64,000 nucleotides of DNA from Herpetosiphon aurantiacus DSM 785 (GCA_000018565.1 CP000875.1:633199-697198), one strand, 5' to 3'. Positions 388-60,757 are shown, numbered from the stretch's first letter. Numbers and translations are program-made. Notes: generated by a model from the sequence alone, not told the origin.

Positions 388-404
388 TATAGAACGATTT
401 TTTA

Positions 405-2169: not shown

Positions 2170-2252
2170 ATACGATCTCCTTCTGAACTATTAGGTCATA
2201 ATTCTGTCTATGTCGTAAAGCACTCGGGAATTTCCCAAGTGCTCCTTTCATC

Positions 2253-12972: not shown

Positions 12973-13650
12973 TTAGGACGCGGCTTCAACCACGCGGACT
13001 AATTGAAATAACCGCTCGCCTTTGGTTTTGGATAAATCCTCCAAGGCTGACAGCTTCAACGGAATACCCGTCCAATCTTCTTTGCTAAATTCCAACTCGC
13101 CGCCTTCTTCACTGGTCGCTTTCCAGATGAAGCCACGCACGGGGAACACATTCCCTTCTTCATCCTCTTGCTCGGCTTCAAAGCCCCACATGCGAATGGG
13201 CAACTGGGCCGCGCCGCCGATTTTGAAGGTTTCTTTGCCGACTTGGCCCACGCCTGAGGCGACCACGGTATTGGTTCCCCCCCATGTACTGGGCAATCCG
13301 GCGAAATCCAGTTGCGCCATGGTCGTTTCGGCGGTTAATTCTTCGCTGACCTTTTTGCGCTTGACCGCGCCCAAAGCTTCTTGGATTTCGGGTGCTTTGG
13401 TTTCGTAGCTGTAGGCCACGACCAGTGGGGCACTCGTTAGGCCGTACTGTACCCAGCCTACGGGCCACGCGGCTCCAACGGCTAAGCTATCAGCAGGCAG
13501 GGTTGTACCCACCGGAGCGTATAACAGCTTGGCATTACTCATCGTTACAGCAGCAACATCGGTTGGCATTCCAACCTCCTTTGTAGTGAAATCGGTCGAA
13601 TCTAATAGTTCTTGATATGGGCTGTCCACCCCGACAAGGCGAACAGCCAC
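12973..13650 (-). CDS. Phage major tail protein
   Basis: Sits immediately upstream of the tail chaperone pair. Size 225 aa. Confidence 0.55.
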   Translation of the reverse strand: MAVRLVGVDSPYQELLDSTDFTTKEVGMPTDVAAVTMSNAKLLYAPVGTTLPADSLAVGAAWPVGWVQYGLTSAPLVVAYSYETKAPEIQEALGAVKRKKVSEELTAETTMAQLDFAGLPSTWGGTNTVVASGVGQVGKETFKIGGAAQLPIRMWGFEAEQEDEEGNVFPVRGFIWKATSEEGGELEFSKEDWTGIPLKLSALEDLSKTKGERLFQLVRVVEAAS

Positions 13651-44827: not shown

Positions 44828-45610
44828 ATGAGTGATCGCCCAAATGAAGATAAGAAATTGCACGACCCAAAAGCTACTGTGCAGTTAACCGCTGACGATT
44901 TGGCCGCCATGCGGGCCGAATTGCAACAAGAAAAAGATAAAGCGAATCAATTTGCAACTGCCCGTTTGAGCGAGGCTGATATCGCTCCTGCTACCAACAA
45001 GAAGTTGGAAAATCCTTATGCCACGGTGCAATTGAACCCTGAGGAGATGGCTGCACTACGTGCCGAAGCTCAACGGGTCAAGGCTGAAGCTCAAGCTGCT
45101 CAGGCAGCCCAAGCTGCACCAGTCGCACCAGCACCAGATAATATTAGCTCAATGCGCGGCGGGGCGGTTGCTAACACGCCACCAGCACCAGCAGCACCCC
45201 AGTCGTTCCCTGATCAAACGGTGATTATGAGTCCTGGCCAAGCGCGGGCGCAGTATGGCAATGCCCCAGTTGATCAATCGTATGCGCCACCAGCACAGCA
45301 GCAATATGCACCGCCAGCGCAGCAGCAACAATATGCACCACCAGCGCAACAACAGCAATATGCGCCGCCACCGCAGCAATACGCGCCACCAGCACAGCAG
45401 CAATATGCACCGCCACCGCAACCAGGCTATGGCCAGAACTACCAAAATGTCCAGCAAACCTATAATCCACCAGCGCAAACTGGCTTTTCAGCGCCACCAG
45501 CACCGCTCAATACCAATGAGAACTTTTTTCAAAAGTATGGGGTGTATTTGCTGATTGGGTTTGGGGCAATGTTAATCGTTGCAGCAATTTTGTTATTAGT
45601 GATTGGCTAA
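44828..45610 (+). CDS. Pro/Gln-rich repeat protein with a C-terminal transmembrane anchor
   Basis: (QQ)QYAPPAQQ decapeptide tandem repeats. C-terminal 'GVYLLIGFGAMLIVAAILLLVIG'. Confidence 0.5.
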   Translation: MSDRPNEDKKLHDPKATVQLTADDLAAMRAELQQEKDKANQFATARLSEADIAPATNKKLENPYATVQLNPEEMAALRAEAQRVKAEAQAAQAAQAAPVAPAPDNISSMRGGAVANTPPAPAAPQSFPDQTVIMSPGQARAQYGNAPVDQSYAPPAQQQYAPPAQQQQYAPPAQQQQYAPPPQQYAPPAQQQYAPPPQPGYGQNYQNVQQTYNPPAQTGFSAPPAPLNTNENFFQKYGVYLLIGFGAMLIVAAILLLVIG

Positions 45611-45657: not shown

Positions 45658-46413
45658 ATGATTGAGCTTTTGCATACGATTGAGGCTAGTGTGCAGCAGG
45701 TCGCTGCCGAAGCCTGTAGCTTGATTCAGGTTCCGCCATTTGTCGCCATGCTTCACCCCGATGATCCTGCGCCATGGTTTAATTATGCGATGCCGATTGC
45801 TGGCTTGGAGACGGCTGCTGCCAATTTGCCAGCTTTGCGCCAGGTTTTTCACGCCCAACAACGCCAACTGCGCTTTGAATGGACGCGTGAGTTATGGCCA
45901 GAGTTGGAAGCGATTTTGCGGGATGCTGGAATCAAGGTCGATCATATTAATCCCCAGATGATTTGCCTGCCTGAGCAATTCAAGCCTTATCATAACCCCG
46001 CTGTTAGCCTGCGGATGCTAACAACTGCCGATGATTTAGCTCATTATCGCCAAGTGACGCGGCTGGGTTTTGGCGATTATTCAGCGATTAGCCAAGCCGA
46101 TGTTGATAGTTTGCACGATGCTTTGACTGATGGTTGGCGCTATGCCATGGCCACGATCGAGGGCGAATTAGCGGCGGTTGGCGGCTATAAACCAACTAGC
46201 CTTGGTGTCGTTGAATTAGTGGCGATTGCAACCTTGCCCGCTTGGCGGCGACGGGGAGCAGCCGCAAGCCTGACCAGTTTTTTGGTGGCTGACCATTTTG
46301 CCAATGCTGGCAAATTAGCCTTTTTATTTGCCGCCGATGCGATTGCCCAAGCAACCTATGCCAAAATTGGCTTTCAACAAATTGCCACCCACTTGGCAGC
46401 AACCGAGGAGTAA
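45658..46413 (+). CDS. GNAT-family N-acetyltransferase
   Basis: C-terminal 'VELVAIATLPAWRRRGAAASLTSFL' matches the acetyl-CoA binding motif A. Confidence 0.6.
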   Translation: MIELLHTIEASVQQVAAEACSLIQVPPFVAMLHPDDPAPWFNYAMPIAGLETAAANLPALRQVFHAQQRQLRFEWTRELWPELEAILRDAGIKVDHINPQMICLPEQFKPYHNPAVSLRMLTTADDLAHYRQVTRLGFGDYSAISQADVDSLHDALTDGWRYAMATIEGELAAVGGYKPTSLGVVELVAIATLPAWRRRGAAASLTSFLVADHFANAGKLAFLFAADAIAQATYAKIGFQQIATHLAATEE

Positions 46414-46415
46414 GC

Positions 46416-46612
46416 CTTACAGGGGTAGGTTTTTGATATCGTTTTAGCATTTGCTTGGTCTTTTTGTGCCCTCACCCCCTAACCCGCCGAGCGAGGCGAG
46501 GGGGAACCACTGTATTATGACGGTTGGATCTCCCCTCGCCCGCCGCAGTGGGAGAGGGGTTGGGGGTGAGGGCATGCTGGCGGACTTTTAAAACCTACCC
46601 CTGTAAAGAGGA
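46416..46612. repeat. Nested palindromic intergenic element (MITE/REP-like), family 1, copy A
   Basis: Outer inverted repeat cttacaggggtaggtttt / aaaacctacccctgtaaag. Inner palindrome gccctcaccccctaacccgccgagcgaggcgagggg ... cccctcgcccgccgcagtgggagaggggttgggggtgagggc. Confidence 0.7.
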
Positions 46613-46620
46613 GTAAACTC

Positions 46621-48177
46621 ATGCGTCGTTGGCTTTATATTGGTTTGGCTGTGCTTTTGATTGGCTGTGGCCAAGCCTTGAAAGCGACCAGCAGCGAGGT
46701 TGCTCCAAGCACTAAGCCTGCCGCCGCGCCAACGATTGATTTAACTGCCCTGATCACATGGCAGCCAGTGCCAGCCTATACCCCACAAATTCCCACGCCA
46801 ACTAATATTCCAATTCCCACGCCAATTCCCGATGCTTGGCCAAATGAGCAGGCTTTGGCGCTGCGCCCCGAATTTGCGGGCGATGCTACTCATTCAACCA
46901 TGCCACGATATGCAATGCAGATTACGCTTGAGCCAAATGTAGGTCGTTATAGCGGCAGCCAAATTATTACCTACACCAATACGACTGGCGCTAGTATCAA
47001 TAGTTTGGTGCTGCGTTCGTATAATAATTTTCCGCCCGATGCCCAAGGCGATGGCGGCGATACCACGCTTGAAGTTACTAAGGCTTGGAGCAATGGCAAC
47101 GAATTGAATCTTGCTCGTGAAGCCGAAAATACCGCTTTTCGGCTTAATCTCGCCACAAGCCTAGCACCCAATCAGCAGGTTGTAATCAGCACCCAATTTG
47201 CTGGCACAATCAAGGCTTGGCCCGATGGCTCGTATCCCTTGCTTTCGGCCTATCCGATGCTAGCGGTTTGGGATGCAGCAGCCAACGATTGGCGCATGGA
47301 TGTAACGCGCTTTCCTGATCGGGTGTTTGCTGAAACTGCACTCTATCGGGTGCAACTCAAGCTACCTGCCGAATATCAAGTCATTGGAGCGGGAACGCTG
47401 CTGGAGCAAAATGCTGATCGCACCAGCCGCACCTATGTTAGTGGGCCAGTGCGGGAGTGGGCCGCCGCGCTTGGTCAATTTTCGGTCAGTACAAGCAGCA
47501 TTGATGGAATTGACGTTAATGCCTATGGCCCCGATTATCTTGATTTGGCGCGGGTGCGCGAGATGGCAATTGGCGCTTTGACTAGTTATCAAGCCAAAAT
47601 CGGCGCGTATCCCTACCGCAAACTCGATCTGCATGTGATGCCATGGGATAGCGGCGGCGGCATCGAGTATCCAGCTTACACGATTATTTTGGTGAACGAT
47701 GGGATCAATCGTGATGCTGATTATGTGGTGTTCCATGAAGTAGCCCATCAGTGGTGGTATGGGTTGTTGGGCAACGATGTCTATCGTGAGGCTTGGCTGG
47801 ATGAGGCCATGGCTAGCTACTTGACCTATGTGGCAACTCAGGACGTGCTTGGTCAAGCTGCCGCCGATAGCTATTACAGCGGCGAAATCGAGCGTTTGGC
47901 GCTCAGTAATCAAGCCAATGGCAATTGGCCAGCAGGCTTGGCGATCAATCAATATCCATCATTTAATAGCTACTATCGCGCAGTCTATGGCAAAGGCGCG
48001 GCGATGTTGCATCAGTTACGCATCAAGCTTGGCGATCAAAGCTTCTTCCAAGGTTTAGCCCAACTCAACGACCAAAAGCGCTATCAGATTATCACCCGTA
48101 GCGATTTCCAAAGCGTTATGGAGCAAAGCAGCGGCCAAGCCCTAGGCGAGTGGCTGGATGGCTGGCTCAACTGGTGA
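46621..48177 (+). CDS. Secreted M1-family (gluzincin) metallopeptidase lipoprotein
   Basis: Lipobox 'LLIGCGQ'. Zinc motif 'VVFHEVAHQWWYG' (HEXXH) with the downstream 'WLDEAMASY' glutamate. Confidence 0.7.
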   Translation: MRRWLYIGLAVLLIGCGQALKATSSEVAPSTKPAAAPTIDLTALITWQPVPAYTPQIPTPTNIPIPTPIPDAWPNEQALALRPEFAGDATHSTMPRYAMQITLEPNVGRYSGSQIITYTNTTGASINSLVLRSYNNFPPDAQGDGGDTTLEVTKAWSNGNELNLAREAENTAFRLNLATSLAPNQQVVISTQFAGTIKAWPDGSYPLLSAYPMLAVWDAAANDWRMDVTRFPDRVFAETALYRVQLKLPAEYQVIGAGTLLEQNADRTSRTYVSGPVREWAAALGQFSVSTSSIDGIDVNAYGPDYLDLARVREMAIGALTSYQAKIGAYPYRKLDLHVMPWDSGGGIEYPAYTIILVNDGINRDADYVVFHEVAHQWWYGLLGNDVYREAWLDEAMASYLTYVATQDVLGQAAADSYYSGEIERLALSNQANGNWPAGLAINQYPSFNSYYRAVYGKGAAMLHQLRIKLGDQSFFQGLAQLNDQKRYQIITRSDFQSVMEQSSGQALGEWLDGWLNW

Positions 48178-49113
48178 GATTGACTCGCCCTGTGAGCGTT
48201 CGCTGGTTTGCTCCAATAAATCGACTTGCATGCCTTCGCGGGCTACAAAGGCCAATGGATAGACCGCTTGAGCATCGGCCTCGATCTGGTCGATTTGGCT
48301 ATCGGTGTGGGCTGGCTCGTGGTGAAACAGGGCAACGTGCTTAATATTGGCGGCTTGGGCTAATTCAATCGCCATGGCCCAAGTGCTATGGCCCCAACCT
48401 TGGCGGCTGGCCTTGGGGTTGGCATATTCAGCAGGCGTATAGTGGGCATCGTGGATAATTAATTCGCTGTTGCGGGCAAAATTGGCCAAGCGTTGATCGG
48501 TGCCAATATACGATTCGATATCGGTAGCATAGATTGCGCTGACCGCATTGTGCTCAACTCGATAGCACATCGAACCGCCGCGTGGATGGCCTAATGAATG
48601 ATAACTACGAATTTCAACTGAGCCAGTTGGGCAAAGCTCATCAGCGTCGGCGGCCACGCGCAACGGCGTAGCAGCATCGGCATTCCACCACAAACGCTCG
48701 CCACCTTCAATTAATAAGGTGCGGCGGCGGGCCAAAAGGCCGGGTCGTTCGGCCAGCATCGAGTGCGATGAAGCGCTGGCCAACAATTCCCAAACCCGAT
48801 CTTGATAGAGATTCCACGGGGCCACGATATAGATCATCTGATCTTCGCGATACAGCGGCGCAAAATGTGGCAAACCCTGAATATGATCATGATGATAGTG
48901 CGAGAGCAAAATTAAAATTGGGCGTGGATTGGGCTGCTGAACTAATTGCTGCCCAAGCTCGACAATCCCTGTGCCAGCATCAAAAATCAATTGCTGGCCG
49001 GCCACCCGCATTTCAACACACGAAGTATTGCCACCTGTTTTAATAAAATCAGCGCCAGTGCTGGGATGACTGCCGCGCACTCCCCAAAATTGGGTTACAA
49101 ATTCCTGCGTCAT
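48142..49113 (-). CDS. MBL-fold metallo-hydrolase
   Basis: 'ILLSHYHHDHIQGL' is the HxHxDH motif. The 3' end overlaps the convergent peptidase gene by 36 nt. Confidence 0.75.
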   Translation of the reverse strand: MTQEFVTQFWGVRGSHPSTGADFIKTGGNTSCVEMRVAGQQLIFDAGTGIVELGQQLVQQPNPRPILILLSHYHHDHIQGLPHFAPLYREDQMIYIVAPWNLYQDRVWELLASASSHSMLAERPGLLARRRTLLIEGGERLWWNADAATPLRVAADADELCPTGSVEIRSYHSLGHPRGGSMCYRVEHNAVSAIYATDIESYIGTDQRLANFARNSELIIHDAHYTPAEYANPKASRQGWGHSTWAMAIELAQAANIKHVALFHHEPAHTDSQIDQIEADAQAVYPLAFVAREGMQVDLLEQTSERSQGESISPVEPAIQPLA

Positions 49114-49136
49114 GAGTGCCCTCGATGTTGCAATGC

Positions 49137-49424
49137 TTACTCGTCACGTAATTCTACGATAGGGGTATTAATTAAGAGATGTTCATGCACAATTCGGTTA
49201 ATCGCTGTGCTATTAAGCTGGCAATAGACCACCCGCCCGGGCTGAATGATTGCATTTGGCCCACGTTCACAGCGACCAAGGCAGTTGCTCAGACGTAGTT
49301 CAACGGTTGCGGTTAAATTGGCAGCAGCTAGTGCTTGCTCAAAGGCTTGTTGCACATGGCCCAATTGGCTGCCACAGTGCAATCCATGACAAAGATAAAT
49401 GCGATACGTTGATTGCTGATTCAT
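49137..49424 (-). CDS. Thioredoxin-like [2Fe-2S] ferredoxin-domain protein
   Basis: Cys pairs 'CHGLHCG' and 'CLGRCERGP'. Confidence 0.55.
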   Translation of the reverse strand: MNQQSTYRIYLCHGLHCGSQLGHVQQAFEQALAAANLTATVELRLSNCLGRCERGPNAIIQPGRVVYCQLNSTAINRIVHEHLLINTPIVELRDE

Positions 49425-49612
49425 TCAGTTTGCTATGCACCCGTTCTCGTATGGGTATGATAGGTCAGCGCCTAGCTGCTGTCAACAGGGATATCAGCCA
49501 TTTTTGGTGCCAAGCAAGTTTTTTTAATTTTGGCTCAACCCCAGCCTCATACTATTGCAGCCCGTTAATTGTTTGGTTTTTGTAATGATTTATTCTCTTG
49601 CCAAAGCTAATC

Positions 49613-49726
49613 GTGCCCTCACCCCAACCCCTCTCCCACTGCGGCAGGCGAGGGGCATTCCAATCGTCATGATGATATGAGTTCCCACTCGCCTCGTGTG
49701 CGGGAGCCAGGGGGTGAGGGTATGCA
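49613..49726. repeat. Palindromic intergenic element, family 1, copy B
   Basis: gccctcaccccaacccctctcccactgcggcaggcgagggg ... gggagccagggggtgagggtatgc shares the core and terminal inverted repeats of copy A. Confidence 0.7.
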
Positions 49727-49793
49727 AACCTAGCAACATTCGGTTAAAAAAGCAAGCTCTCGGGTTGATGTTGCACCGAGAGCTTGCTATTGG

Positions 49794-50987
49794 TTATTGA
49801 TGATTGACTGGCAGTTGTAAAGTGAAGATGCTGCCAACCCCCACGGTGCTTTCTAGCGAAACTGTGCCATTGTGGGCTTCAGCAACGTGTTTGGCGATCA
49901 CCAAGCCCAAGCCGGCCCCGCCAATACTTGCGAGTGTATCATCGAGCCGCACAAATGGCTCGAAAATTCGTTCGAAGTCGTCTTCAGGAATGCCCACGCC
50001 ATTGTCGCGAATTGAAACCCGCACCAATTGATCATCTTGATAGACCGAAACTTGAATTACCCCACCTTGGGCGGTGTATTGGGTTGCATTTTCGAGCAAG
50101 TGCCGCACAGCATTATCCACACCATGCACATCCATATGAATCATCAACGGTGTTTGAATGCCGCTGACATAAATGTTGCGCACCAAGGTTTGGTTTTTTT
50201 CCAAGAAGGTTGGCTGCATATCGTTACAAATCGATTGAACTAAGCCGCGTAAATCGGCTTGGGCAAAATCCATTTGGTTCGAGCGCACTTGTTGCAGGTA
50301 AATCAAATCGTTGATATGGCGTAATAGGCGGGTGCTATTGCGCTTCATCAACTCGAGGGCTTCACGTTGACCATCACTGACTGGGCCAAGCGCCTGCATG
50401 TTGAGCAAATCAATATAGCCATGAATCACGGTCAGCGGGGTGCGTAGCTCGTGCGAAATTGTCGCCAAGAAATCGTTTTTTGCTTGATCAAGCCGTGTCA
50501 AGCGATTATTGGCGGTTTCCAACTCGCGTACATGCGATTCCAAGCGCCCGACCAGTTGTTGGCTATATTCGCGCATCACGCTCGGCGCTTCGGCAGTTTC
50601 TAAAACTTCGCGTGTGCCACCGATATAGCTGGCGACCAAATCGGGCAAGGCCCGTGGATCGATTGGCTTAGAAATATAGCCATCACAGCCAGCCGCCAAA
50701 GCTCGTTCGCGATCGCCTGGAGTGGTATTGGCAGTTAAAGCTACAATTGGCACCGAAGCCAGTTGCGGCGTGGCTTTGAATTTGGTGGTTAATTCATAGC
50801 CATTCAAGCCAGGCAAATTAATATCCATCAAAATCAGATCAGGGCGATCAGTTTGGGCCGATTTCCAACCTTCGTTGCCGTCATTGGCGATGATAATCTG
50901 ATAGCCACGAGTTGCGAGAACGCGTCGTACTAAACGTTGATTATCGTGATTATCCTCAATGTACAGAACCCGAGTCGAACCTGCCAT
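49794..50987 (-). CDS. Hybrid response regulator / histidine kinase (REC-HisKA-HATPase)
   Basis: REC 'VLYIEDNHDN...LILMDINLPGLNG'. H-box 'LATISHELRTPL'. G-boxes 'RDNGVGIP' and 'GGAGLGL'. Confidence 0.85.
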   Translation of the reverse strand: MAGSTRVLYIEDNHDNQRLVRRVLATRGYQIIIANDGNEGWKSAQTDRPDLILMDINLPGLNGYELTTKFKATPQLASVPIVALTANTTPGDRERALAAGCDGYISKPIDPRALPDLVASYIGGTREVLETAEAPSVMREYSQQLVGRLESHVRELETANNRLTRLDQAKNDFLATISHELRTPLTVIHGYIDLLNMQALGPVSDGQREALELMKRNSTRLLRHINDLIYLQQVRSNQMDFAQADLRGLVQSICNDMQPTFLEKNQTLVRNIYVSGIQTPLMIHMDVHGVDNAVRHLLENATQYTAQGGVIQVSVYQDDQLVRVSIRDNGVGIPEDDFERIFEPFVRLDDTLASIGGAGLGLVIAKHVAEAHNGTVSLESTVGVGSIFTLQLPVNHQ

Positions 50988-51002
50988 GACGGTTATTTCC
51001 TT

Positions 51003-53645
51003 CTAACTAGGTGATTGTTGTTCAATCGGCGCTGGGATGCTGGCGGTGGCGATCGCAAATGAGAAGGTGCTACCAACCCCAACTTTGCTATCGACCCATA
51101 AATCACCATCGTGCAAATCGACCAACCTGCGGGTAATCGAAAGCCCCAAGCCCGACCCCAAAATGCCGCGTGCCCCAGCATGCACTTGCTGAAACTCTTG
51201 GAACAGCTTGCCCAAGGCTTCGGCATCCATGCCGATCCCCGTATCTTGGACGCTGATTACAATCCAATCGCCGGGCAATAAATAGTGTGAGCCAATTGGC
51301 GTAGCTTCTTGGACTACCCGCCGAATTGCCCGCACCACAATTTGGCCACGGTCGGTAAATTTTACCGCATTTGAAATCAGGTTAATCACAATTTGGCGCA
51401 AACGGGTTGGATCAACATCCATTCGTGGCAAATCGGGCGCAATATCGATGCGCATGGTAACTGGCTTGGAATTCAGACCATGCATAATATCGACTGCCGA
51501 TTGCACGACTGGCAGCACTGCCGTTGCCTCACGATGCAGGGCAAATTTGCCAGCTTCGATCCGCGCCATATCCAAAATATCGTTGATCAGATCGAGCAAG
51601 TAGCGGCCATTTTTGTTGATGGTTTCAAGGTCTTCGCGCTGTTCTTCAACCAACAAGGGCGAAAGTTCATCGAGCAACACGGTTGAGAAGCCAATGATTG
51701 CGTTCAGTGGCGTGCGTAATTCGTGTGAAATGCTGGCCAAAAACTGCGATTTCAGGCGATCAGCGGCTTGAGCACGGTCGAGAGCTTCGCGCAACTCGCC
51801 AGTGCGTTGGGCCACCAAATCTTCCAAGTTTTGGAATGAGAAGGCGTTTTCAATTGTCAAGCCGACCATATCAGCAAAGTTGAGCAGTAACGCTGCATCT
51901 TGCACCGTAACCAAACGCCCTTGCTCATAGTAATCGGCAGAAATCAAGCCCAATACTTTTTCGCGGCCCAAAATTGGCGCTTGTACATACGAATCGCCGC
52001 CCGAAATAAACTGCTTGGCTTGAATTACCTGCGGATGTTCCCAAGGATTATCGACGATCACCGCTTGGCGCGATTTGATTACGCTGGCTTCAATCGTATC
52101 GCTATCGATTGTAATTGGCTCGGACAGCGCTGCCCGCATAAAATCGTATTCAAGCTCGTAGTTGTTGGGTCCAAATGAGGCCGAAACTACCTCGATCACC
52201 TCATCACGCAGCAGATACAGCACCGCCCGATCAAACCCTAAGCGTTGACATAATAATTGCGGAATATGATCAAGCACGGTATTTAATGAACGCAAGCGTT
52301 TGAGTTCATTGCTGGTTTCATTGATCGCGGCCATCTGTTGGGCATTAACTTCTAAGGCATCGACTTTTTCGCGTAACGCTGTAGTCATCTGATTGAACGA
52401 AAGGCTCAAGCGGCCAATTTCATCATTGCCATGGACGACCAACTCTTGATCAAGCTGGCCTGAGGCGATTCGTTGTGCGCCAACTTCAAGGTCGCGCAAT
52501 GGTCGAATGATCGTTCGCGCCAAGCCTGTGGCCAAAATAATAATTAAGCCTGAGGTGATCAACAAAACTGCCAAGAAATTGCGACGTAGCTGCTCTTGCT
52601 CGCGTTCGATTGCCAAACTCGCATCGCGGGCTGGGCTAATCACATCGTCGATTGGCAGCACCAAGGCCACGACCCAGCCAACCGTGCGCATCGGCGAATA
52701 GGCCAGATAGCGGTCGCCACCATCGAGTTGCAGGCGGGTCACGCCAGCCATATCATTGCGAATATTTTCGCGTAATGAGACAAAATTTGGGTCGTTGCTC
52801 TCAAATAAATTCTGTTTCTTAAAGGTTTCGTCCCAACGGGTATTGCCAGCCTCAAGCTCAGGCCGAATCAAAATATTGCCATCGTGATCCATCACAAAAG
52901 CATAGCCCGAACTGCCTGCATCGATCCGCAACACATCCGATTGAATCGTGGTCAGCAGCAAATCCATGCCAATCACGCCAATCAACTGATTGTTGACTTT
53001 GACCGGAGCCGAGACCGTGATATTGAGCTGGTTGGTGACGGCATCGACATAGGTTCCGACCCAAGTTGGGCCAGTAGCTTTTTCGGCGGCTTGATACCAA
53101 GGACGTTTACGGGCATCAAAACCATCGGGCAATACGCTAACGACCCGCACATCATCGAGCACCATCACACCTTCTTTGGTGGCCAAATAGCCCAAAGAAA
53201 TCAGCGGATTCAGATCGACGTTGCTTTGGAGTGCGCCAGTAATTTGGCGAGCACGAGCCACGGTCAGCCGCAGTTGATCAGGGGGAATCAGGGTTGGGCC
53301 ACTGCCTGCCAGCCAAAAGGGGTCGGGGCGAGTGTCGGCCAGCCGATCAAGTGGGCGGCTGAAGGCCTGTTGGGTGATATTAACCATGGTTTGGACTTGG
53401 CGCTGCACACTCAACAAAGCCTGATCATATAGCTCAGCTTTGTCGATTGCGCGACTCATCAGCATGTTTTCAGCTTGAATTAAGAGGGTGTTTTCGCTTT
53501 GTTTGACGGCGGCCAAGCGGGCTTGGGAAATCCCATTCAAGCTCAACCAGCCCACAATAATCAAGGCTGGCAGCGAAACCCCTAATGCCAGCAACAAAAC
53601 CCGCGCTTGAACCCCAAACCGAACATTTCGTGGTTGTGATGTCAT
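51003..53645 (-). CDS. Membrane sensor histidine kinase (TM, Cache-like periplasmic domain, HAMP, GAF, HisKA, HATPase)
   Basis: Two transmembrane segments flank an extracytoplasmic domain of about 290 aa. H-box 'LASISHELRTPLNAIIGF'. G-boxes 'QDTGIGM' and 'GSGLGLSI'. Confidence 0.85.
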   Translation of the reverse strand: MTSQPRNVRFGVQARVLLLALGVSLPALIIVGWLSLNGISQARLAAVKQSENTLLIQAENMLMSRAIDKAELYDQALLSVQRQVQTMVNITQQAFSRPLDRLADTRPDPFWLAGSGPTLIPPDQLRLTVARARQITGALQSNVDLNPLISLGYLATKEGVMVLDDVRVVSVLPDGFDARKRPWYQAAEKATGPTWVGTYVDAVTNQLNITVSAPVKVNNQLIGVIGMDLLLTTIQSDVLRIDAGSSGYAFVMDHDGNILIRPELEAGNTRWDETFKKQNLFESNDPNFVSLRENIRNDMAGVTRLQLDGGDRYLAYSPMRTVGWVVALVLPIDDVISPARDASLAIEREQEQLRRNFLAVLLITSGLIIILATGLARTIIRPLRDLEVGAQRIASGQLDQELVVHGNDEIGRLSLSFNQMTTALREKVDALEVNAQQMAAINETSNELKRLRSLNTVLDHIPQLLCQRLGFDRAVLYLLRDEVIEVVSASFGPNNYELEYDFMRAALSEPITIDSDTIEASVIKSRQAVIVDNPWEHPQVIQAKQFISGGDSYVQAPILGREKVLGLISADYYEQGRLVTVQDAALLLNFADMVGLTIENAFSFQNLEDLVAQRTGELREALDRAQAADRLKSQFLASISHELRTPLNAIIGFSTVLLDELSPLLVEEQREDLETINKNGRYLLDLINDILDMARIEAGKFALHREATAVLPVVQSAVDIMHGLNSKPVTMRIDIAPDLPRMDVDPTRLRQIVINLISNAVKFTDRGQIVVRAIRRVVQEATPIGSHYLLPGDWIVISVQDTGIGMDAEALGKLFQEFQQVHAGARGILGSGLGLSITRRLVDLHDGDLWVDSKVGVGSTFSFAIATASIPAPIEQQSPS

Positions 53646-53740
53646 AGGCCAACGCCCCGTGTATTGCTGGAAGTTGAGTCAGATCTGTAGGTAGGTTTAA
53701 TGTCCCCTAGTGTAGCATAAAATAGTTGATTGGGGATCGG

Positions 53741-54010
53741 ATGAATAAAGGATGAAGGATGAAATTGTTTTGATCCACGAAGGACGCGAAGGACACGAAG
53801 CACGGAACCGCGAAGGACGCGAAGCACGCGAAGGTTGAGTTTTTAGCCACGAATTCCACGAATTGCACGAACATTTTTTAGCCACAGATTACACAGATTT
53901 ATTTAATTATCCTGCTCTGCGCAATGCCTGAACCCTAGCCCCTGACCCCTGCTCCCTACTATTTTGCCTTTTGATTTTTGATTCTATTAGTTCTTTTTGC
54001 CTTCTGCCTT
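53741..54010. repeat. Family 2 repeat block, left copy: tandem CGCGAAGGA-type octamers, CCACGAATT repeats and a TTGCCTTTTGATTTT array
   Basis: cacgaaggacgcgaaggacacgaagcacggaaccgcgaaggacgcgaagcacgcgaagg ... ccctagcccctgacccctgctccc. A reverse-complement copy occurs at 56729-56880. Confidence 0.7.
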
Positions 54011-54073
54011 TTGCCTTTTGATTTTATCGGTGGTTGTTTGCACTTTTCTTGTATACTTTGATCTAATTCTCTG

Positions 54074-55267
54074 GTGCTTTGGGAGGCACGCATGAGCGAA
54101 CACCAGTCTGAGCAGGATGTGGGCGTGGATAGTCCAGCTACGCCATCACTGCTTCAACGGAATCGTTGGTTGCGGCGATTGATGAAATTTGGCTTTGTGG
54201 TGGTTGGCCTGTTTTTCTTTATTTTAGCTTTGCGCTTATTAAGTAAAGGTGCAGGTGGCTTGGGGCCATTTTTAACCAAAACCTTGGGGATTGAAAATGC
54301 CCTGAATACCTTGGGCTTTGGGTGGCTCTTTGCCTATGGGGTATTGAGTGGCTCGCCCGTGGCCGGAATTGCGCTTTCTTTTTTAGATAGCAAAGTAATC
54401 GATCCACTTCAGGCTTTTACGATGATTACTGGCTCACGGCTGGGTGCATCGTTTATTGTCTTGGTGATTGGCTTTATCTACTTTTTGCGGGGCCGTGAAA
54501 AAGCCGCCTCGCTTTCAATTGGCGTGTTGGCGCTTAGCGTTACAGCTACCACCTATCTGCCAGCATTGGCGATTGGCTATTGGCTCTTGACTGATAGCGG
54601 GCTGGATCAGGTGCGGATCGCCTTGCCATCGGCAATTTTCGATTTCGTCGAGCAGGTGTTTGATCCGATTGTGGCTTGGCTGATTCGCACGATTGATAGT
54701 GGGATTGTGAATATATTTGGGACAACTCCCGCGACAACTGGGGTTTTACCGGCAACGAGTGTGGTAATTTTTGTGGTTGGGGTCGGCACATTGCTGTTTG
54801 CCTTTAACCTTTTGGATAAAGCATTGCCGCAGGTTGATGCTGAACATAATGCATTTGGGCGGGTTGGTGGCTTGATCTATCGACCGTGGGCGATGTTTTT
54901 GCTGGGAGCGTTCGTTACCTCGTTGACCTTATCGGTTTCGGTTTCGCTCTCGATCTTGGTGCCACTTTCGGCTCGCGGCTTTATTCGGCGCGAAAATACC
55001 TTGCCCTACATTATGGGAGCCAACATCACCACCTTTATTGATACCCTGATTGCCTCATTGTTGATCAAAGATCCATTTGCTTTTACAGTAGTGCTGGCTG
55101 AAATTATCAGCATTACAGTAATTTCATTAATTATTCTCGTTTTTCTCTATCGCCCATATGAGCGGCTAATTTTGCGCTTGCTTGATCGGGTAGTCAACGA
55201 TACGCCGATGTTGGTTACCTTTATGGTGGTGATGGTCGTGACCCCGATTCTGCTGTTATTTATCTAG
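54074..55267 (+). CDS. Polytopic membrane protein, Na/Pi-cotransporter-family-like
   Basis: 10 or more transmembrane helices. 'IMGANITTFIDTLIASL' resembles the NptA-type GANIGTT motif. The actual start may be Met at 54092. Confidence 0.4.
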   Translation: MLWEARMSEHQSEQDVGVDSPATPSLLQRNRWLRRLMKFGFVVVGLFFFILALRLLSKGAGGLGPFLTKTLGIENALNTLGFGWLFAYGVLSGSPVAGIALSFLDSKVIDPLQAFTMITGSRLGASFIVLVIGFIYFLRGREKAASLSIGVLALSVTATTYLPALAIGYWLLTDSGLDQVRIALPSAIFDFVEQVFDPIVAWLIRTIDSGIVNIFGTTPATTGVLPATSVVIFVVGVGTLLFAFNLLDKALPQVDAEHNAFGRVGGLIYRPWAMFLLGAFVTSLTLSVSVSLSILVPLSARGFIRRENTLPYIMGANITTFIDTLIASLLIKDPFAFTVVLAEIISITVISLIILVFLYRPYERLILRLLDRVVNDTPMLVTFMVVMVVTPILLLFI

Positions 55268-55276
55268 GATCAACCT

Positions 55277-56107
55277 ATGAAGCCTTTTAATTTGATGATT
55301 TACCTTGATGGTTCCTCGGCAGCGCGACGCATGGTGGCCTATCTTGCGCCATTAGCCCGTAAATCGCATGTCAAAACGACCTTTTTGGTCGATGAAGCCC
55401 ATCAAGATGAAGCCGAAATGTATTTTTTCAACGCTGAGCAATTATTGCAAAGCGATCAAGCGCCGACCCGCACGATTCGCGGAGCCACGCCAGAACGGGC
55501 GATTGTGCTCGAAACTCGTGCTAGCCAACCAGATTTGGTGGCGTTTGGGCCGTTGCGCAAGGAAGGTTGGCGACGATGGCTGGGTCAATCGGCGATTGGT
55601 TCGTTGGCTCGGCGTTTAACCTGCTCGATGTTATTGATGCAAGGTCGCCCGAATGAGCTGCGCCGCGCCTTGGTTTGCGCTGCTGGTGGCCCGGCTACGC
55701 TACACGATGCCCAAATGACGGCCTCAATTATCGAACCCCTTGGCGGCCAAGTAACAATTTTGCATATTGTGTCGCAACTATCGCTGACCTACAAGCCCGA
55801 GGAGCGCGACCCTGAGCGGCTCGCCGATTTGGTGATGGAAAAGCAGGGCGAGGTGGCGCGTAATATTGCTGCCGCCAAAACCATTTTGACCGATCGCGGC
55901 ATTACCACCACCGTGCGGATTCGCGCTGGCATGGTGCTTGAAGAAATTCAAGAGGAACTCAAAACGGGCGGTTACGATCTCTTGGTGATAGGTGCGCATC
56001 GGGCGCGAACGCCACTTGATCGGGTCTTGCTCGAAGATGTTAGCGCTGAGATCTTGTTTAATAGTCCAATTCCTGTTTTACTTGTCCAAAATACCAGCGA
56101 TTTCTAA
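55277..56107 (+). CDS. Universal stress protein family (tandem Usp-like domains)
   Basis: Two alpha/beta Usp-like halves. C-terminal 'LLVIGAHRAR...VLLVQ'. Confidence 0.55.
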   Translation: MKPFNLMIYLDGSSAARRMVAYLAPLARKSHVKTTFLVDEAHQDEAEMYFFNAEQLLQSDQAPTRTIRGATPERAIVLETRASQPDLVAFGPLRKEGWRRWLGQSAIGSLARRLTCSMLLMQGRPNELRRALVCAAGGPATLHDAQMTASIIEPLGGQVTILHIVSQLSLTYKPEERDPERLADLVMEKQGEVARNIAAAKTILTDRGITTTVRIRAGMVLEEIQEELKTGGYDLLVIGAHRARTPLDRVLLEDVSAEILFNSPIPVLLVQNTSDF

Positions 56108-56128
56108 ACCGCAATCAAGGAGTTTGCT

Positions 56129-56728
56129 ATGGCCGTCTTGCTACTCGATAACTACGATTCCTTTACCTATAATTTGTATCAATATTTCTGCGAACTTGGC
56201 GCAGAGGTGGTGGTCAAGCGCAACGATGAAATTGAAGTCGATGATATTCGCCACATGGAAGCCATTGACCGGATTGTAATTTCGCCTGGACCATGTACGC
56301 CTGCCGAAGCCGGCATTAGCGTGCCGCTGATTCGCGAATTGTGTATGGAATACCCAATTTTAGGCGTTTGTCTGGGACATCAATCGATTGGGGCCGCCTT
56401 TGGCGGGCGAGTGATTCGCGCTCCCCAATTGCGCCACGGCAAAACCTCACCGATCACTCACTTGAATGTTGGGATTTTCGCTGGTGTGCCTTCACCCTTC
56501 ACCGCCACCCGCTATCACTCATTGATTGTCGAGGAATCCAGCTTGCCTAGTGATCTTGAGGCTACCGCTTGGAGTGATGATGGCTTGATTATGGGTTTGC
56601 GCCACCGCACCTTGCCAATCGAAGGCGTGCAATTCCACCCCGAATCGATTATGACTGAGCATGGCAAAGTGTTACTTGCTAACTTCTTGAGCATTGCTAA
56701 ACCAGAGTTGGCCGAGGTTAGGGGTTAG
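56129..56728 (+). CDS. trpG: Anthranilate / aminodeoxychorismate synthase component II (class I glutamine amidotransferase)
   Basis: '[17 protein letters not shown]', '[10 protein letters not shown]' (catalytic Cys), '[13 protein letters not shown]' (His/Glu). Confidence 0.9.
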
Positions 56729-56880
56729 GGGTTAGGGATCAGGGGTCAGAGGTCAGGAATGGATTCCGTGAATCTGTGGCTAAAAACAGCTTTGCGTTTT
56801 TTGCGTCCTTCGCGGTTCCGTGCTTCGTGTCCTTCGTGTCCTTCGCGGATCAAAACATTGAGTTGAGATTAATAGATTTC
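56729..56880. repeat. Family 2 repeat block, right copy, inverted orientation
   Basis: ggggttaggggttagggatcaggggtcagaggtcagg ... gcgtccttcgcggttccgtgcttcgtgtccttcgtgtccttcgcgg is the reverse complement of the 53741-54010 block. Confidence 0.7.
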
Positions 56881-56887
56881 GAGTGAT

Positions 56888-57100
56888 ATGCAACAATTAA
56901 CATTAAAACCTGAAGAAGTGCCCGCCAATTTGGCCGAATGGCTGCGAGCTAGCCAACAAACCACCATTTTATTGGCGGTTGAGCTTGATGCCGATGGCTA
57001 TCTGTCGTTGCAAGCCTTGCCGGAGGTAGATCCGCAGCTTGTGCCACGGGTGCGCAAAGCCATGGCACAATATGCCGAAACCTTGCGGAGGCTGCTGTGA
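56888..57100 (+). CDS. Small protein, putative antitoxin (Phd-like position) for the downstream Doc toxin
   Basis: 70 aa. Its stop overlaps the Doc start (ATGA). Confidence 0.35.
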   Translation: MQQLTLKPEEVPANLAEWLRASQQTTILLAVELDADGYLSLQALPEVDPQLVPRVRKAMAQYAETLRRLL

Positions 57101-57495
57101 CCCATTATTTGGGCCTGACCGATGCCTTTATGCTCCAAGCCATGGTGATTCAGCACATCGGTGGAATTCATGGCATTACTGAACAGGGCTTTGAAAAATT
57201 AGCCACCGCCTTGGCTGCGCCCCAACAAACCATGTTTGGCGAGGATCTGTATCCCGATACGTTTAGCAAGGCCGCTGCTTTATTCGATGCGTTGATTCAT
57301 GGTCATTGTTTTAGCGATGGCAATAAACGCACGGCCTTATTGGCGATGATTGAATTTCTGGCTCGGAATGGCTATGCCTTCAATACGCCCGACGACGATA
57401 GCCTTTACGATTGGATTTTGCTGGTGGCAGCAGAACGAGGCATGGATCGTGAACAACAGGCCGCTTGGATCGCACAACGTTGTGAGCAATTATGA
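57097..57495 (+). CDS. Doc/Fic-family toxin (death-on-curing)
   Basis: Fic motif 'HCFSDGNKRTALLAMIEF'. Confidence 0.8.
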   Translation: MTHYLGLTDAFMLQAMVIQHIGGIHGITEQGFEKLATALAAPQQTMFGEDLYPDTFSKAAALFDALIHGHCFSDGNKRTALLAMIEFLARNGYAFNTPDDDSLYDWILLVAAERGMDREQQAAWIAQRCEQL

Positions 57496-57908
57496 GTGAA
57501 GAAGTTCCATTGCACTATATTACCCTTGAAGAAGCGCTGCATATTCGCGATGCGATTGCCGAAGCGCATGGCGAAAGCTTCGATGTTTTGCGCTTTCAAC
57601 AATTACTCTCGGCCTTAGCTACGCCTTTTCAATCGATGTTTGGCGAGGAGCTTTTTCCAACGCTATGTGCCAAAGCGGGCATGCTGCTGGCTGGGCTAAT
57701 TCGCAATCATCCATTTTGGGATGGCAACAAGCGCATCGCAATGGCGATTACGGCGCGATTTCTAGCCTTGAATGGCTATCAACTGACGGTTGATGCCGCC
57801 GAAGCTGATCAATTTACTACCGCCTTGGCCATGCATCGCCAAGATTATGAAACTGCCAGTAGTTGGCTAGCCCAACATTCGCGGCCAATTGGCGAAAATC
57901 GTAGCTAA
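57492..57908 (+). CDS. Second Doc/Fic-family toxin paralogue
   Basis: Fic motif 'HPFWDGNKRIAMAITARF'. Start overlaps the upstream Doc stop by 4 nt. Confidence 0.8.
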   Translation: MSEEVPLHYITLEEALHIRDAIAEAHGESFDVLRFQQLLSALATPFQSMFGEELFPTLCAKAGMLLAGLIRNHPFWDGNKRIAMAITARFLALNGYQLTVDAAEADQFTTALAMHRQDYETASSWLAQHSRPIGENRS

Positions 57909-57984
57909 AAAGCCAAAACGGCTGTGGTATAATGGGCCACAAATAGCCCACCGTAAACCACACAACCATAGAAAGAATAGCCAA

Positions 57985-58596
57985 ATGGCCATCGCTGACG
58001 ATCACGCACAATCAGAGCGAAGTGATGCTGTTTTGTTGGAGGCAATTACCACCAACAACGATATGCTGGCGCTCCAACAATTGTTTGATCGCTATCGCCA
58101 GCAATTGTTCCAGACTGCATTGGGGATTACCCGCGATCAACAATTGGCCGAAGAGGTCTTGCAAGATTGTTTTTATCGGTTGTATCGCCATGCTAAAAAG
58201 CTTGATGGCAGTATGCCACTGGCCCCTTGGCTCTATCGCGTAACGGTGAATTTGTGCTATAGCCGCATCAAGCGCCAACGCCCATGGTACGAGCCATTTC
58301 ATCAATTGGCTGAGCGCTTGCGGGCTAGCTCTCGTTCTGCGCCCGATGTGGTCGCTGAACGCCGCGAGATGCAAGATGTGGTGCGCCAAACCTTAGAGCG
58401 CCTTTCACCCCAGCATCGCGCAGTTTTAGTCTTACATTATTTTCATGATTATTCCCTGACGGAGATTGCCGAAATTCTAGAATGCCCTGAGGGAACGATT
58501 AAATCGCGGCTGTTTTATGCCCGTAAAATTCTCAAAGAGCAGCTCTACCAAGCTGCAATCGAGGGCGAACCACTGATTGACGGAATTTCCTTCTAA
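57985..58596 (+). CDS. ECF-subfamily RNA polymerase sigma-70 factor
   Basis: Region 2 'LQDCFYRLYRHAKKL'. Region 4 'YSLTEIAEILECPEGTIKSRLFYARKIL'. The ORF track starts at 57889, but the Met at 57985 is the likely start. Confidence 0.8.
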   Translation: MAIADDHAQSERSDAVLLEAITTNNDMLALQQLFDRYRQQLFQTALGITRDQQLAEEVLQDCFYRLYRHAKKLDGSMPLAPWLYRVTVNLCYSRIKRQRPWYEPFHQLAERLRASSRSAPDVVAERREMQDVVRQTLERLSPQHRAVLVLHYFHDYSLTEIAEILECPEGTIKSRLFYARKILKEQLYQAAIEGEPLIDGISF

Positions 58597-58625
58597 GATA
58601 GTTAGTGCCGAGGAAGATTCAACCA

Positions 58626-60379
58626 TGTCTATCTCCGTCCCACGCATTACACCACGACTATTAATGTCCGGTGATCCATTATTTAGCTTGGTGCGGTTGA
58701 TTAGCCTTGGCTTGATTTTGGTCGTCGGCGCTCGCATCGATCAACACACGGTTATTCCGCCAACCACCCCATTTGGCCTAATTTGGTGGGCCTATGCGAT
58801 CTATGGTTTAGTGATGGCTGGCTCGGCTTTTGTGCCCCGCTTTCGCAACTTGCCCTCGTGGATCTTTATTGTTGATTTTGGCTTTATTGCGCTCTTTGCC
58901 TTGTTTAGCGGTCTGCCCCCCGCCTTGTTGGTAGCGTTGATTATGTTGCCAACTGTGTGGGCTTCAACCAATCGTTCGCCTGCCCAAGCAGTTGGTACGG
59001 GTGTGGGCGCAGCGATTGTCTATGCTGGCATTACGCTATATCGGCGCTTTGGCGATGCTGGCAATGTTGGCAGCGAAGAGATGTTTGTTAGCATTGCAGT
59101 CAACTGTACAGCTTTGATTTTAGTTTCGTGGTTGGTCAGCACGCTTTCTGGTCAGTCCAGCGAGATCAATCGCGAACATGTGATTGCCGCACGGCGTGAT
59201 GTCGATAGTGCTCAGCGTGATGCCGAAGCGTATCGCGACCGCATGCGAGCACTCTACGAAGTTGCCTATAAACTTAGTACTACCATGAATTTTCAAACGG
59301 TGCTTGATGCCACCGTGACCGAATCGATTCGTTTGATCAATGGCCGCAGTAGCGTGGTGCTGTTACCAACTGGCGAGCCAGATGAATTGTATGTTGCTGC
59401 TGGCGTTGGAGTTGGCTCTGGTGATCTCAATTTGCGGATTGCGATTGAGCCAACTGGAATTATGGCCTCGATTCTGGCCTCAGGCACGCCGCGCATTTTG
59501 AACGATTTGCGCCAATCACATGCCTTGAGCAGCGTACCATCGATGCAAAACTGTGCGTGTGTTTGTTGTGTGCCGCTGAGCGCAGGCCGCCGCAACTATG
59601 GCATCGTGGTCGTCGGGGTTGATCGTAACGAAATCAATGAAGATGAATTGGGTATGGTTTCGGCCTTGGCCAATTACGCAATTATTGCCATGCTCAATGC
59701 CCAATTGGTTGGCGAATTACGCGATGAACGCACCAAACTGATTAGCAAAGAAGAAGAAGTGCGCCAACAACTTGCCCGCGATTTGCACGATGGCCCCGCT
59801 CAATCAGTGGCCGCCATCACCATGAATATTGAATTTGTCAAGCGTTTATTGGAGCGCGAACCAAGCCGCGTGATGCAAGAGCTGACCAAAATGGGCGAAT
59901 TAGCCCGCCGCACCACCTATGATATTCGCACGCTTTTGTTCGAGTTGCGCCCCTTGACTCTGGATAGCCAAGGCCTCGTTGCGACCCTGCGCGAATATGT
60001 AACCCGCTTCAAAGATGGCACGACCCAGGTAATCCTCGAAGAAACCGTCGGCGAGTTGCGGCTTGATGCCAAACGTGAAGGCACCTTGTTCAATATTATT
60101 CAAGAAGCTAGCAACAATGCCATGAAACATGCCCAAGCCAAACACATCTGGATTCGGCTAACCCGCCAAGGCGATGAGTTGATGGCGACAGTGCAGGATG
60201 ATGGCAAAGGCTTCGATTTGCAAGCAGTTCGGGCTAACTACAGCAAACGTGGCTCGTTTGGCCTCTTAAATATTGATGAACGGGCACGCATGGTTGGCGG
60301 GAGTGCCGAAATGACCTCAGCAGTTGGCGCTGGTACAACCGTTCGGGTTATTGTACCGCTTGATGCCAGTAGTATTTAG
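58626..60379 (+). CDS. Membrane sensor histidine kinase, HisKA_3 (NarL-partner type), with a polytopic N-terminal domain and GAF domain
   Basis: 5-6 transmembrane helices. GAF. H-box 'ARDLHDGPAQSV'. HATPase 'QDDGKGF...GLLNIDERARMVGG'. Lies downstream of, and overlapping, the ECF sigma gene. Confidence 0.75.
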
Positions 60380-60435
60380 ATAATGAATCTACTGACCCCG
60401 CGACGAGTGCTCGTCGCGGGGTTTTATAGTTAATT

Positions 60436-60680
60436 GCCTTCATCCCAACCCCGCTCTCACTGCGGCGGGCGAGGGTAAGTTTCCGCTGCGAACCACTAAG
60501 CCGCTGGTTCATCGATAGATGGCTAACTGCCCTTGATTGCCCTTGAGGGGGTGCAGGGGGATTAAAGCCCCCGACGTTTCCCGCCTTGAGGCGGGACGGA
60601 AGGGTGGTGATCACGGATGATGGGATGGTTAACAACCTACCCTTAAAAGGAAGGGATTAGGGAATGAGGGCATGCTGACG
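60436..60680. repeat. Palindromic intergenic element, family 1, copy C (longer, degenerate)
   Basis: catcccaaccccgctctcactgcggcgggcgagggtaag ... aacctacccttaaaaggaagggattagggaatgagggcatgc shares the CACTGCGGCGGGCGAGGG core and the CCTACCC..AAAG outer arm with copies A and B. Confidence 0.6.
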
Positions 60681-60757
60681 AACTATCGATAAAAATGCAC
60701 ATAAACCGCTATTGGTTGTACACTAAGCAGCAGATGATTTAGCTGGAGCAAGCGTCG

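Follow-up and report, generated by a model that had tools for sequence, protein, structure and literature searches.

Three GC-rich palindromes of Herpetosiphon aurantiacus are recently gained selfish repeat DNA, one of them with the footprints of transposition

Three palindromic elements in one window

We analyzed a stretch of 64,000 nucleotides from Herpetosiphon aurantiacus DSM 785 (GCA_000018565.1 CP000875.1:633199-697198), hereafter the window, which contains three GC-rich palindromic elements denoted copies A, B, and C. Copy A lies between an acetyltransferase open reading frame (ORF 45658-46413) and ORF 46621-48177, which encodes an M1 peptidase with 100% identity to ABX03238.1 / UniRef100_A9AW00 (Herpetosiphon aurantiacus). 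Copy B sits between the terminator of a histidine-kinase gene and the promoter region of the next gene, just downstream of the terminator, and copy C follows gene 58577-60379. We found that the three palindromes are recently gained selfish repeat DNA and that one of them, copy A, carries the footprints of transposition.

An earlier note on this DNA had claimed three intergenic elements that share a 40-bp core and its inverted partner. All three were found where it had placed them, and all are intergenic. The core is exact in A (46532-46572, minus strand) and B (49616-49655, plus strand) but not in C (60436-60475), where it has five substitutions. The inverted partner needed revision. A and B do have a second arm of the same motif type, but it is a different, partly deleted copy (46468-46504; 49684-49721), and in C its place is taken by a degenerate ~23-nt block with a 13-nt flank that A also has (60649-60684). 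The palindromic repeat family is real, but C is not an equivalent third copy and reads instead as a mosaic with a nested second element. Copy A and the reverse complement of copy B have 90 identical positions over the whole ~107 bp, central spacer included, and by alignment the two are one ~107-bp unit in opposite orientation.

The note had also raised the objection that the copies might be no more alike than chance GC-rich palindromes. Apart from GC-rich composition, nothing speaks for this. A repeat search matched A to B over 52 nt at 88% and A to the left arm of C over 32 nt at 94%, far above chance; A and B share an exact 41-mer save for one base and one optional C; shuffles gave zero expected core matches; and the core sequence was found in 13 other genome stretches. 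On the basis of the repeat lengths and identities, the shuffles, and the matches in other genomes, chance likeness was rejected with near certainty. The right-hand block and flank of C match the interior of A (46551-46586) over 36 nt at 75%, and the window holds 10 GGGNGAGGG blocks where 1.3 are expected, 8 of the 10 being inside the three elements. A second objection, that the core might be confined to these three places, fails as well, since the core was found well outside them, in 13 stretches of Chloroflexota genomes, in plasmids, and, as the general motif, in viral contigs.

Copy A is a MITE between two genes that once adjoined

Copy A is an intact MITE (miniature inverted-repeat transposable element), inserted between two genes that had previously abutted. 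Two facing copies of a triplex motif (TM, characterized below) make up a palindrome of ~106 bp, and the element is bounded by terminal inverted repeats (TIRs) and a 9-bp target-site duplication (TSD). Its parts are as follows.

46405-46413, plus strand: left 9-bp TSD copy, GAGGAGTAA, which is at once the end of the acetyltransferase ORF 45658-46413, with its final codons and stop
46414-46607: copy A, a 194-bp MITE (TIR, 34-nt spacer, inverted TM pair, 16-nt spacer, TIR)
46417-46433, plus strand: left TIR, TTACAGGGGTAGGTTTT, a 17/17 complement of 46590-46606
46468-46504, minus strand: left arm, a decayed "type 2" TM with a TTA second loop and an internal deletion of ~7-9 nt
46505-46531: central spacer with ATTATGACGGTTGGA, conserved in B as judged by aligning its reverse complement to A
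46532-46573, plus strand: right arm, a "type 1" TM, CCCTCGCCC-GCCGCAGT-GGGAGAGGG-GTTGG-GGGTGAGGG, matching the relaxed TM pattern and equal to the 40-bp core of the earlier note
46590-46606, minus strand: right TIR, a perfect inverted repeat of the left TIR
46608-46616, plus strand: right TSD copy, GAGGAGTAA, now the Shine-Dalgarno region 4 nt before the M1 peptidase ATG (46621)

The outer inverted repeat that had been noted around A was borne out as 17 perfect bp (46417-46433 / 46590-46606), and its arm does recur in C, at 60632-60648, with 14/17 matches. A search for a TSD, which the note had proposed, found the 9-bp GAGGAGTAA on both sides of A. The left junction reads GAGGAGTAA followed by GCC-TTACAGGGGTAGGTTTT, and the right junction reads AAAACCTACCCCTGTAA-A followed by GAGGAGTAA-ACTC-ATG. 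The chance of an exact flanking 9-mer is ~1e-4 per case.

The window was compared with orthologous or matching genome and metagenome stretches (loci numbered with L), and orthologues of the A site were retrieved via the flanking proteins. The relatives at this site were a metagenome-assembled genome (MAG; L101) and H. geysericola (L102), both with ~81-82% nucleotide identity to the window, H. gulosus (L106; 89.5%), and L107 and L108 (92.7-93.1%). Metagenome contigs L017-L020 were 99.8-100% identical. The A site is empty in four relatives (L101, L102, L107, and L108), which have a single copy of GAGGAGTAA and only 3-5 nt between the acetyltransferase stop and the peptidase ATG; in L107 and L108 the empty junction reads GAGGAGTAAATCTCATG. 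By duplicating GAGGAGTAA, the insertion gave the downstream peptidase gene its ribosome-binding site back. H. gulosus carries copy A at this very site and with an identical duplication, yet the element is absent from the closer L107 and L108, which implies precise loss or allele exchange at least once. The comparison of related genomes that the note had called for found that the A, B, and C sites all differ between relatives.

The term "MITE-like" was therefore well chosen for copy A, which has perfect TIRs (17/17), a 9-bp TSD, a small non-coding body (194 bp), and empty sites in relatives. It resembles other bacterial MITEs, such as the 178-235 bp Chunjie of Geobacter, with TIRs of 21 bp and direct repeats of 9 bp (PMC3184786), and the Coxiella element QMITE2 (PMC10969869), in being a non-coding element of ~150-250 bp with TIRs, a 9-bp duplication, and a very stable predicted fold, and likewise in intergenic location, nesting, and presence or absence between strains. 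It differs from them in a TIR unrelated to any that we found in the literature and in an interior made of a TM pair, and copy A is the only one in the window with TIRs, a TSD, a small non-coding body, and empty sites together.

The other half of the label, which likened the family to repetitive extragenic palindromic (REP) sequences, found no such support, as nothing REP-specific was detected. REPs and bacterial interspersed mosaic elements, with the associated RAYT transposases (PMC2817692), do share with the present elements GC-rich extragenic palindromes in alternating orientation, mosaics of modules, and hot spots for other insertions. By inspection, however, the unit here is tripartite (a hairpin plus a third G-block) and not a simple palindrome with a GTAG head, and REPs are without the TIRs and TSD of copy A. 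For these reasons the REP reading was rejected.

Local variability was also raised, as all three sites differ among relatives and a deletion and contig breaks fall within copy A. The left arm is undeleted in H. gulosus and in metagenome contig L018, and the window has lost 7-9 nt from it. Starting at 46483 and running 4.7 kb to the right, contig L018 matches the window at 100% identity; left of this break, which lies inside the left arm of A, its positions 1-823 are unrelated sequence with an HTH_20 gene. Contig L019 ends at 46477, also inside the left arm. These breaks may be real rearrangements or assembly breaks or chimeras at a repeat, and on either reading they point to further near-identical copies in that population. 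The earlier remark that the arms give rise to spurious ORFs was confirmed for the left arm of A, where the frame 46469-46507 reads PSPPNPPSEARGN. In Herpetosiphon data, the elements account for proline/glycine-rich ORFs that are spurious, for broken contigs, and for joins that may be chimeric.

The core is the BoxC/PIT/TM triplex motif

Judged by sequence, the 40-bp core is no novel core but a known G/C-rich intrastrand triplex motif (BoxC/PIT/TM). The earlier note had made it the mark of a REP/MITE-like family, and this part of the claim has to be amended because the core had already been described as the TM motif (PMC4666352). The string GGGGTGAGGGC in full text traced it to Holder et al. 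2015 (PMC4666352). There, the E. coli form TMECO is defined as CCCTCNCCC-N3-6-GGGNGAGGG-N3-GGGNGAGGG (Holder et al., NAR 2015, PMC4666352). The motif had previously been named BoxC (E. coli, 1990s) and PIT (Hoyne et al. 2000); 3610 copies of TMECO are present in 262 proteobacterial genomes, and related motifs are plentiful in cyanobacteria (PMC4666352). TMs are always intergenic, at times occur as inverted pairs, can carry small deletions where palindromic, are linked to higher local variability among E. coli strains, and were "not found associated" with transposons, phages, or plasmids (Holder et al., PMC4666352).

The core here has three blocks of 9 nt each, CCCTC(G/T)CCC, GGGAGAGGG, and GGGTGAGGG, in the same order as in TM(ECO), and the type-1 arm is laid out as CCCTCGCCC-GCCGCAGT-GGGAGAGGG-GTTG(G)-GGGTGAGGG. 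In a hand comparison that included the hrpB-mrcB locus, 30-31 of 34-36 positions of this arm were identical to published E. coli TMECO, and 31/36 were identical to the TMECO type A sequence; a G.A mismatch at the variable position is common to both. The blocks CCCTCNCCC, GGGNGAGGG, and GGGNGAGGG follow one another in order on one strand. The right arm of A matches the block pattern exactly, the left arm of B has one substitution in the C-block, the arm of C is degenerate, and the second arms have decayed. When E. coli genomes were searched with the arm by blastn, there was no significant match, the query being too short.

The likeness extends to strictly intergenic location, occurrence singly or as inverted pairs, and local indels with strain variability. 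The differences lie in the host, here a Chloroflexota bacterium, and in the loops, of which the first has 8 nt and the second 4-5 nt, longer than the 3-6 nt and 3 nt of strict TMECO. Because of the longer loops the strict TMECO pattern fails, with 0 matches in the window, and the elements belong to the broader G/C-rich TM class and not to strict TMECO. A relaxed pattern (at most 1 substitution per block, loops of 2-12 nt and 1-7 nt) was used in its place. The pairs also differ in orientation, as the third-strand blocks here face outward (<-TM TM->) and face inward in E. coli hrpB-mrcB, in Cupriavidus, and in 7/8 pairs from viral contigs. Finally, the TM pair here lies inside an element bounded by TIRs and a TSD, in contrast to the lack of any transposon, phage, or plasmid association in the 2015 paper (PMC4666352).

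Could the motif be kept by the host as non-B DNA, a triplex or cruciform that serves replication pausing or protein binding, with mobility incidental? By eye and on paper, the blocks fit the G.G:C and T.A:T / A.A:T triad rule of the purine motif. When TTG forms the second loop, the antiparallel alignment of GGGAGAGGGG with GGGGTGAGGG gives G.G, T.A, and A.A triads, and the blocks are conserved across phyla. The sites, on the other hand, are not conserved between close relatives, and we know of no binding protein for the TM motif. TMECO oligonucleotides form a stable triplex as single strands in vitro, but no triplex was detected in duplex DNA or in vivo (PMC4666352). Taken together, we consider host maintenance as non-B DNA improbable.

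Copies B and C

The second unit of the family, copy B, is a short insertion between two genes.

49574-49741: copy B, a 168-bp insertion, absent by alignment from L106, L107, L108, L101, and L102
49615-49655, minus strand: left arm of B, a type-1 TM (the core), exact to the consensus of the earlier note
49684-49721, plus strand: right arm of B, a decayed type-2 TM, recognized by reading and by the alignment of A with the reverse complement of B
49751-49788, minus strand: intrinsic terminator of the histidine-kinase gene 49794-50987, a 13-bp stem followed by U6, -23 kcal/mol, conserved in all relatives

No TIR or 9-bp duplication around B could be accepted, and the junctions show only (T/C)GGTT microhomology. 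Candidate TIRs in the flanks of B (10-11/17 to the TIR) were too weak and were discarded. Copy B is a younger insertion of a TM pair with unrecognizable ends.

Copy C is more complex, and it also adjoins a terminator.

60394-60423, plus strand: intrinsic terminator of gene 58577-60379; C begins 13 nt after it
60436-60475, minus strand: left arm of C, a type-1 TM with 5 substitutions, 94% over 32 nt to A
60482-60644, plus strand: nested second element, the "X module", homologous to the TIR-bounded element of locus L014 from another Chloroflexia genome, with 135/155 aligned positions (87%) identical
60632-60648, minus strand: TIR-like motif AACAACCTACCCTTAAA at the right end of the nested element, 14/17 to the TIR
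60649-60684, plus strand: degenerate TM end block and flank CATGCTGACGAACT, 75% to 46551-46586 in A

Copy C is thus a three-part mosaic: one arm of the type-1 TM, the nested second element minus its left end, and a degenerate end of a TM together with CATGCTGACGAACT. It is an old, decayed TM element that was invaded by a second MITE of the same TIR family. The X module in C reads GGGGGTGCAGGGGG-loop-CCCCC...TCCCGCC-TTGA-GGCGGGA-CGGAAGGGTGG. At the C site, the relatives were H. geysericola (L103) and a strain with a FolC that is 98% identical (L104). Copy C is absent from both. Other short repeats are in its place in H. geysericola; in L104 a different TIR-bounded element is found there, and five upstream genes are missing.

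The L104 indel was noted in its own right. Comparison of L104 2499-3001 with window 56729-60757 shows that five genes between a GATase gene and folC are missing; they include genes for a Fic-domain protein, an ECF sigma factor, and a GAF histidine kinase, as identified with Pfam from the orthologues in H. geysericola (L103), and the indel is flanked by repeat-rich spacers.

The elements as RNA structures or terminators

The earlier note had suggested that the elements could act as terminators or RNA structures. More broadly, they might be cis-acting RNAs selected by the host, whether terminators, mRNA stabilizers, attenuators, or small RNAs. The predicted folds are indeed very stable. The folding check proposed by the note gave -92.7 kcal/mol for the whole of A, and the 111-112 nt cores had z = -6.0 to -6.8 on 3/4 strands and -4.5 on the minus strand of B. 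Copy A also lies within a probable operon.

A terminator role is nevertheless unlikely. No T-run follows A, B, or C, and separate, conserved intrinsic terminators adjoin B and C, so the elements are not themselves the terminators there. The Rfam comparison that had been proposed gave 0 matches at gathering thresholds, and the E-value mode returned only sub-threshold noise. Stem positions are invariant or mismatched (G.A) and do not covary, and the elements are absent from close relatives in which the flanking genes are intact. PIT/TM sequences were without promoter or terminator activity in E. coli (PMC4666352). An RNA function is unlikely because there is no U-tract, real terminators adjoin B and C, covariation is lacking, and the elements are dispensable in close relatives; we give host selection for an RNA only a slim chance.

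Distribution of the motif in other genomes

A blastn search of a plasmid collection found the same 40-60 nt at 14 places in Cupriavidus and in two cyanobacteria; these matches share CCCCTCGCCC-loop-GGGAGAGGGGTTGGGG(G)TGAGGG with variable loops. The loop-specific pattern CTCGCCNGCCGCAGTGNGAGNGGGG was found in 13 genome stretches, all from Chloroflexota: four from Herpetosiphon sp. NSE202, three from an uncultured Chloroflexia MAG, and the rest from Herpetosiphonaceae, Thermomicrobiales, and Dehalococcoidia. Several of the 13 have the inverted-pair layout, and AAAACCTACCCYTGTAAA recurs alongside the pair. The relaxed pattern detected 27 TMs in 190 kb of Chloroflexota sequence. The general TM pattern was also present in IMG/VR (L109-L228), where at least 120 contigs, viral or proviral, contain it, with 142 motifs among the matches listed, mostly in the perfect T-A form. 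The motif is therefore intergenic and multi-copy in the window and spread over many bacteria, with copies in Chloroflexota, in plasmids of two other phyla, and in viral contigs. The viral-contig matches may sit in phage DNA or in host flanks; PMC4666352 reported no phage link.

TMs occur singly, in tandem arrays, or truncated and recombined (L101, L008, L010). Spacers of the ATCATGAC type, akin to the central spacer of A and B, are present in L016, L009, and L011. In L101, a tandem array of TM-like hairpins with a repeated CACGCAGCATGCCAAAACCACGG spacer lies at 13100-13420 and occupies the spacer where the window carries CGCGAAG repeats.

A TIR family with different cargo

The window has one intact and one degenerate copy of the TIR set, and others were found in L009, L010, L014, L016, L021, and L104. 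In L016, another Chloroflexia genome, the layout TIR-spacer-TM pair-TIR is the same as in A, and the 9-bp TSD is a different one, GGAAACGCA. The L016 element interrupts an X module, and uninterrupted X-module copies carry GGAAACGCA once. The layout of A was also present in L009. In L014, an X-module cargo is bounded by the same TIR family, and its flanks, TTGGGGTGA / TTAGGGTGA, form an 8/9 TSD. These flanks indicate that the L014 element was inserted in the third block of a TM. Elements in L104 and L021 have the TIRs around other cargo, with no clear duplications. A duplication of fixed length was accordingly seen as 9 bp in A (GAGGAGTAA) and L016 (GGAAACGCA) and as 8/9 in L014, and not for B, L104, or L021; TIRs were not found at B, and C has one degenerate end only.

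Locus L021 came from a metagenome scan with the M1 peptidase as seed, which otherwise returned only distant paralogues (21-41% identity) of no use for synteny; L021 carries a MITE of the TIR family of copy A.

The X module itself (GGGGGTGCAGGGGG-loop-CCCCCTGCGTTTCCC-hairpin-GGGACGGAAGGGTGG) constitutes another conserved repeat, with one C-rich and two G-rich segments. It was found at window 60540-60615, L014 ~4905-5000, the flanks of 199-406 in L016, and L012 ~3640-3700. Elements of the same TIR family carry it, and in L016 the module in turn serves as a target for the TM-MITE. In Rfam its hairpin gave only whalefall-1, below threshold (E = 0.05).

How the elements may spread

Together, these results favor the reading that the elements are non-coding selfish TM-pair repeats of Herpetosiphon and other Chloroflexia, which exist in part as a MITE with 17-bp TIRs (TTACARGGGTAGGTTTT) and 9-bp TSDs and are probably mobilized in trans; we put the probability at about 0.72. 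Its observed basis is the motif's identity, the bounding TIRs and TSDs, the sites found empty, the nesting, and the turnover between relatives. A DDE-type transposase of a candidate insertion sequence (IS) would move the elements by making cuts staggered by 9 bp. IS families with 9-bp duplications include IS4, IS1, IS256, the IS903 group, ISLre2, and ISKra4. The palindromic, triplex-prone interior may in turn promote deletion, precise excision, and recombination, and hairpin-promoted slippage between the duplications could be the route of precise loss; this would account for the patchy presence among close relatives. The elements would be tolerated after terminators, before promoters, or where the duplication repairs a junction or ribosome-binding site.

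Several points weigh against this reading. No autonomous IS with the TIRs of copy A was found in 0.68 Mb of retrieved loci, and in viral contigs the TIR gave 15 lone matches without a partner, at chance level, and no IS. The 9-bp rule rests on two clean TSDs and one 8/9 TSD. The distribution of A departs from the gene tree and needs precise excision or allele exchange. Copy B has the narrowest distribution of the three, yet is without TIRs or a clean TSD; therefore either a route independent of TIRs must exist or the donor of B had already decayed.

A tentative alternative, which is compatible with trans-mobilization of the MITE, is that the TM pair itself propagates without TIRs and the MITE is an occasional carrier. 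Possible routes are REP/RAYT-like single-strand (HUH) transposition, or recombination, gene conversion, or template switching at hairpins. TM pairs can also arrive without recognizable TIRs, as copy B shows, perhaps by a second, TIR-independent route: B, an insertion of 168 bp that has neither TIR nor TSD and only 4-5 bp of junction microhomology, fits such propagation. So do the single, tandem, and truncated or recombined TMs (L101, L008, L010), the conservation of the motif across phyla where the TIR of copy A was not seen, and the unrelated cargo that the TIR family also carries. Against it, the two cleanest insertions (A and L016) are bounded by TIRs and TSDs, the TM does not have the simple palindrome plus GTAG head typical of REPs, and no RAYT/Y1 transposase was identified, although no genome search for RAYT was made. 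We regard this as possible but clearly less probable than carriage by the MITE.

To our knowledge, no function, origin, or means of spread has been established for BoxC/PIT/TM since the 1990s. It is among the most widely conserved bacterial non-coding repeats, and the main study of it saw no link to mobile elements. The finding of a TM pair inside an element with clean transposition footprints in two Chloroflexia genomes offers a testable route by which the motif moves. The MITE class and the TM motif class were already known. Our literature search found no description of the TIR family or of TMs inside a MITE, although such absence is no proof, and nothing relevant on repeats of Herpetosiphon; there is a modest chance that the result bears on the spread of TM/BoxC. 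A stronger claim, that BoxC/PIT/TM is spread by, or structurally required for, a family of transposable elements and may also be a preferred transposase target, we consider rather unlikely. The insertion of the L014 element within a TM third block, with the duplication TTRGGGTGA, hints at such targeting. If the claim were true, what has been linked to TMs as "genomic instability" would amount to transposition and excision, not to damage induced by triplexes. Gains and losses are visible between genomes that are ~90% identical, and with a cultivated host and clear empty and filled sites, Herpetosiphon is a tractable system.

Other repeats in the window

Further repeats fill the spacers of the region. 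Short units of the CGCGAAGGA / CACGAAG type make up an inverted repeat of 68 nt (91%) at 53766-53833 / 56790-56857, which brackets a block of Na/Pi cotransporter, Usp, and GATase genes (54074-56728), and these units also fill intergenic spacers in L101, L102, L103, and L012. Other spacer modules are GGGGTCAGGGGTCAGGG and its complement, GGATGAAGGATGAAGG and its complement CCTTCATCC, and TTTTGCCTTTTGATTTTTG, found at window 53646-54073 and 56720-56760, L102 12866-13452, and L103 2570-3010. The Herpetosiphon spacer modules differ between species at orthologous sites.

Within ORF 44828-45610, about seven tandem repeats of 24-27 nt (window 45272-45478) encode a Q/A/P-rich repeat, e.g. QQYAPPAQ. 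Their copy number is apparently different in relatives, where the products are 252-260 aa long. The G+C content is 32-40% at window positions 1-4000, against 47-59% elsewhere in the window, and this part may be foreign or atypical DNA.

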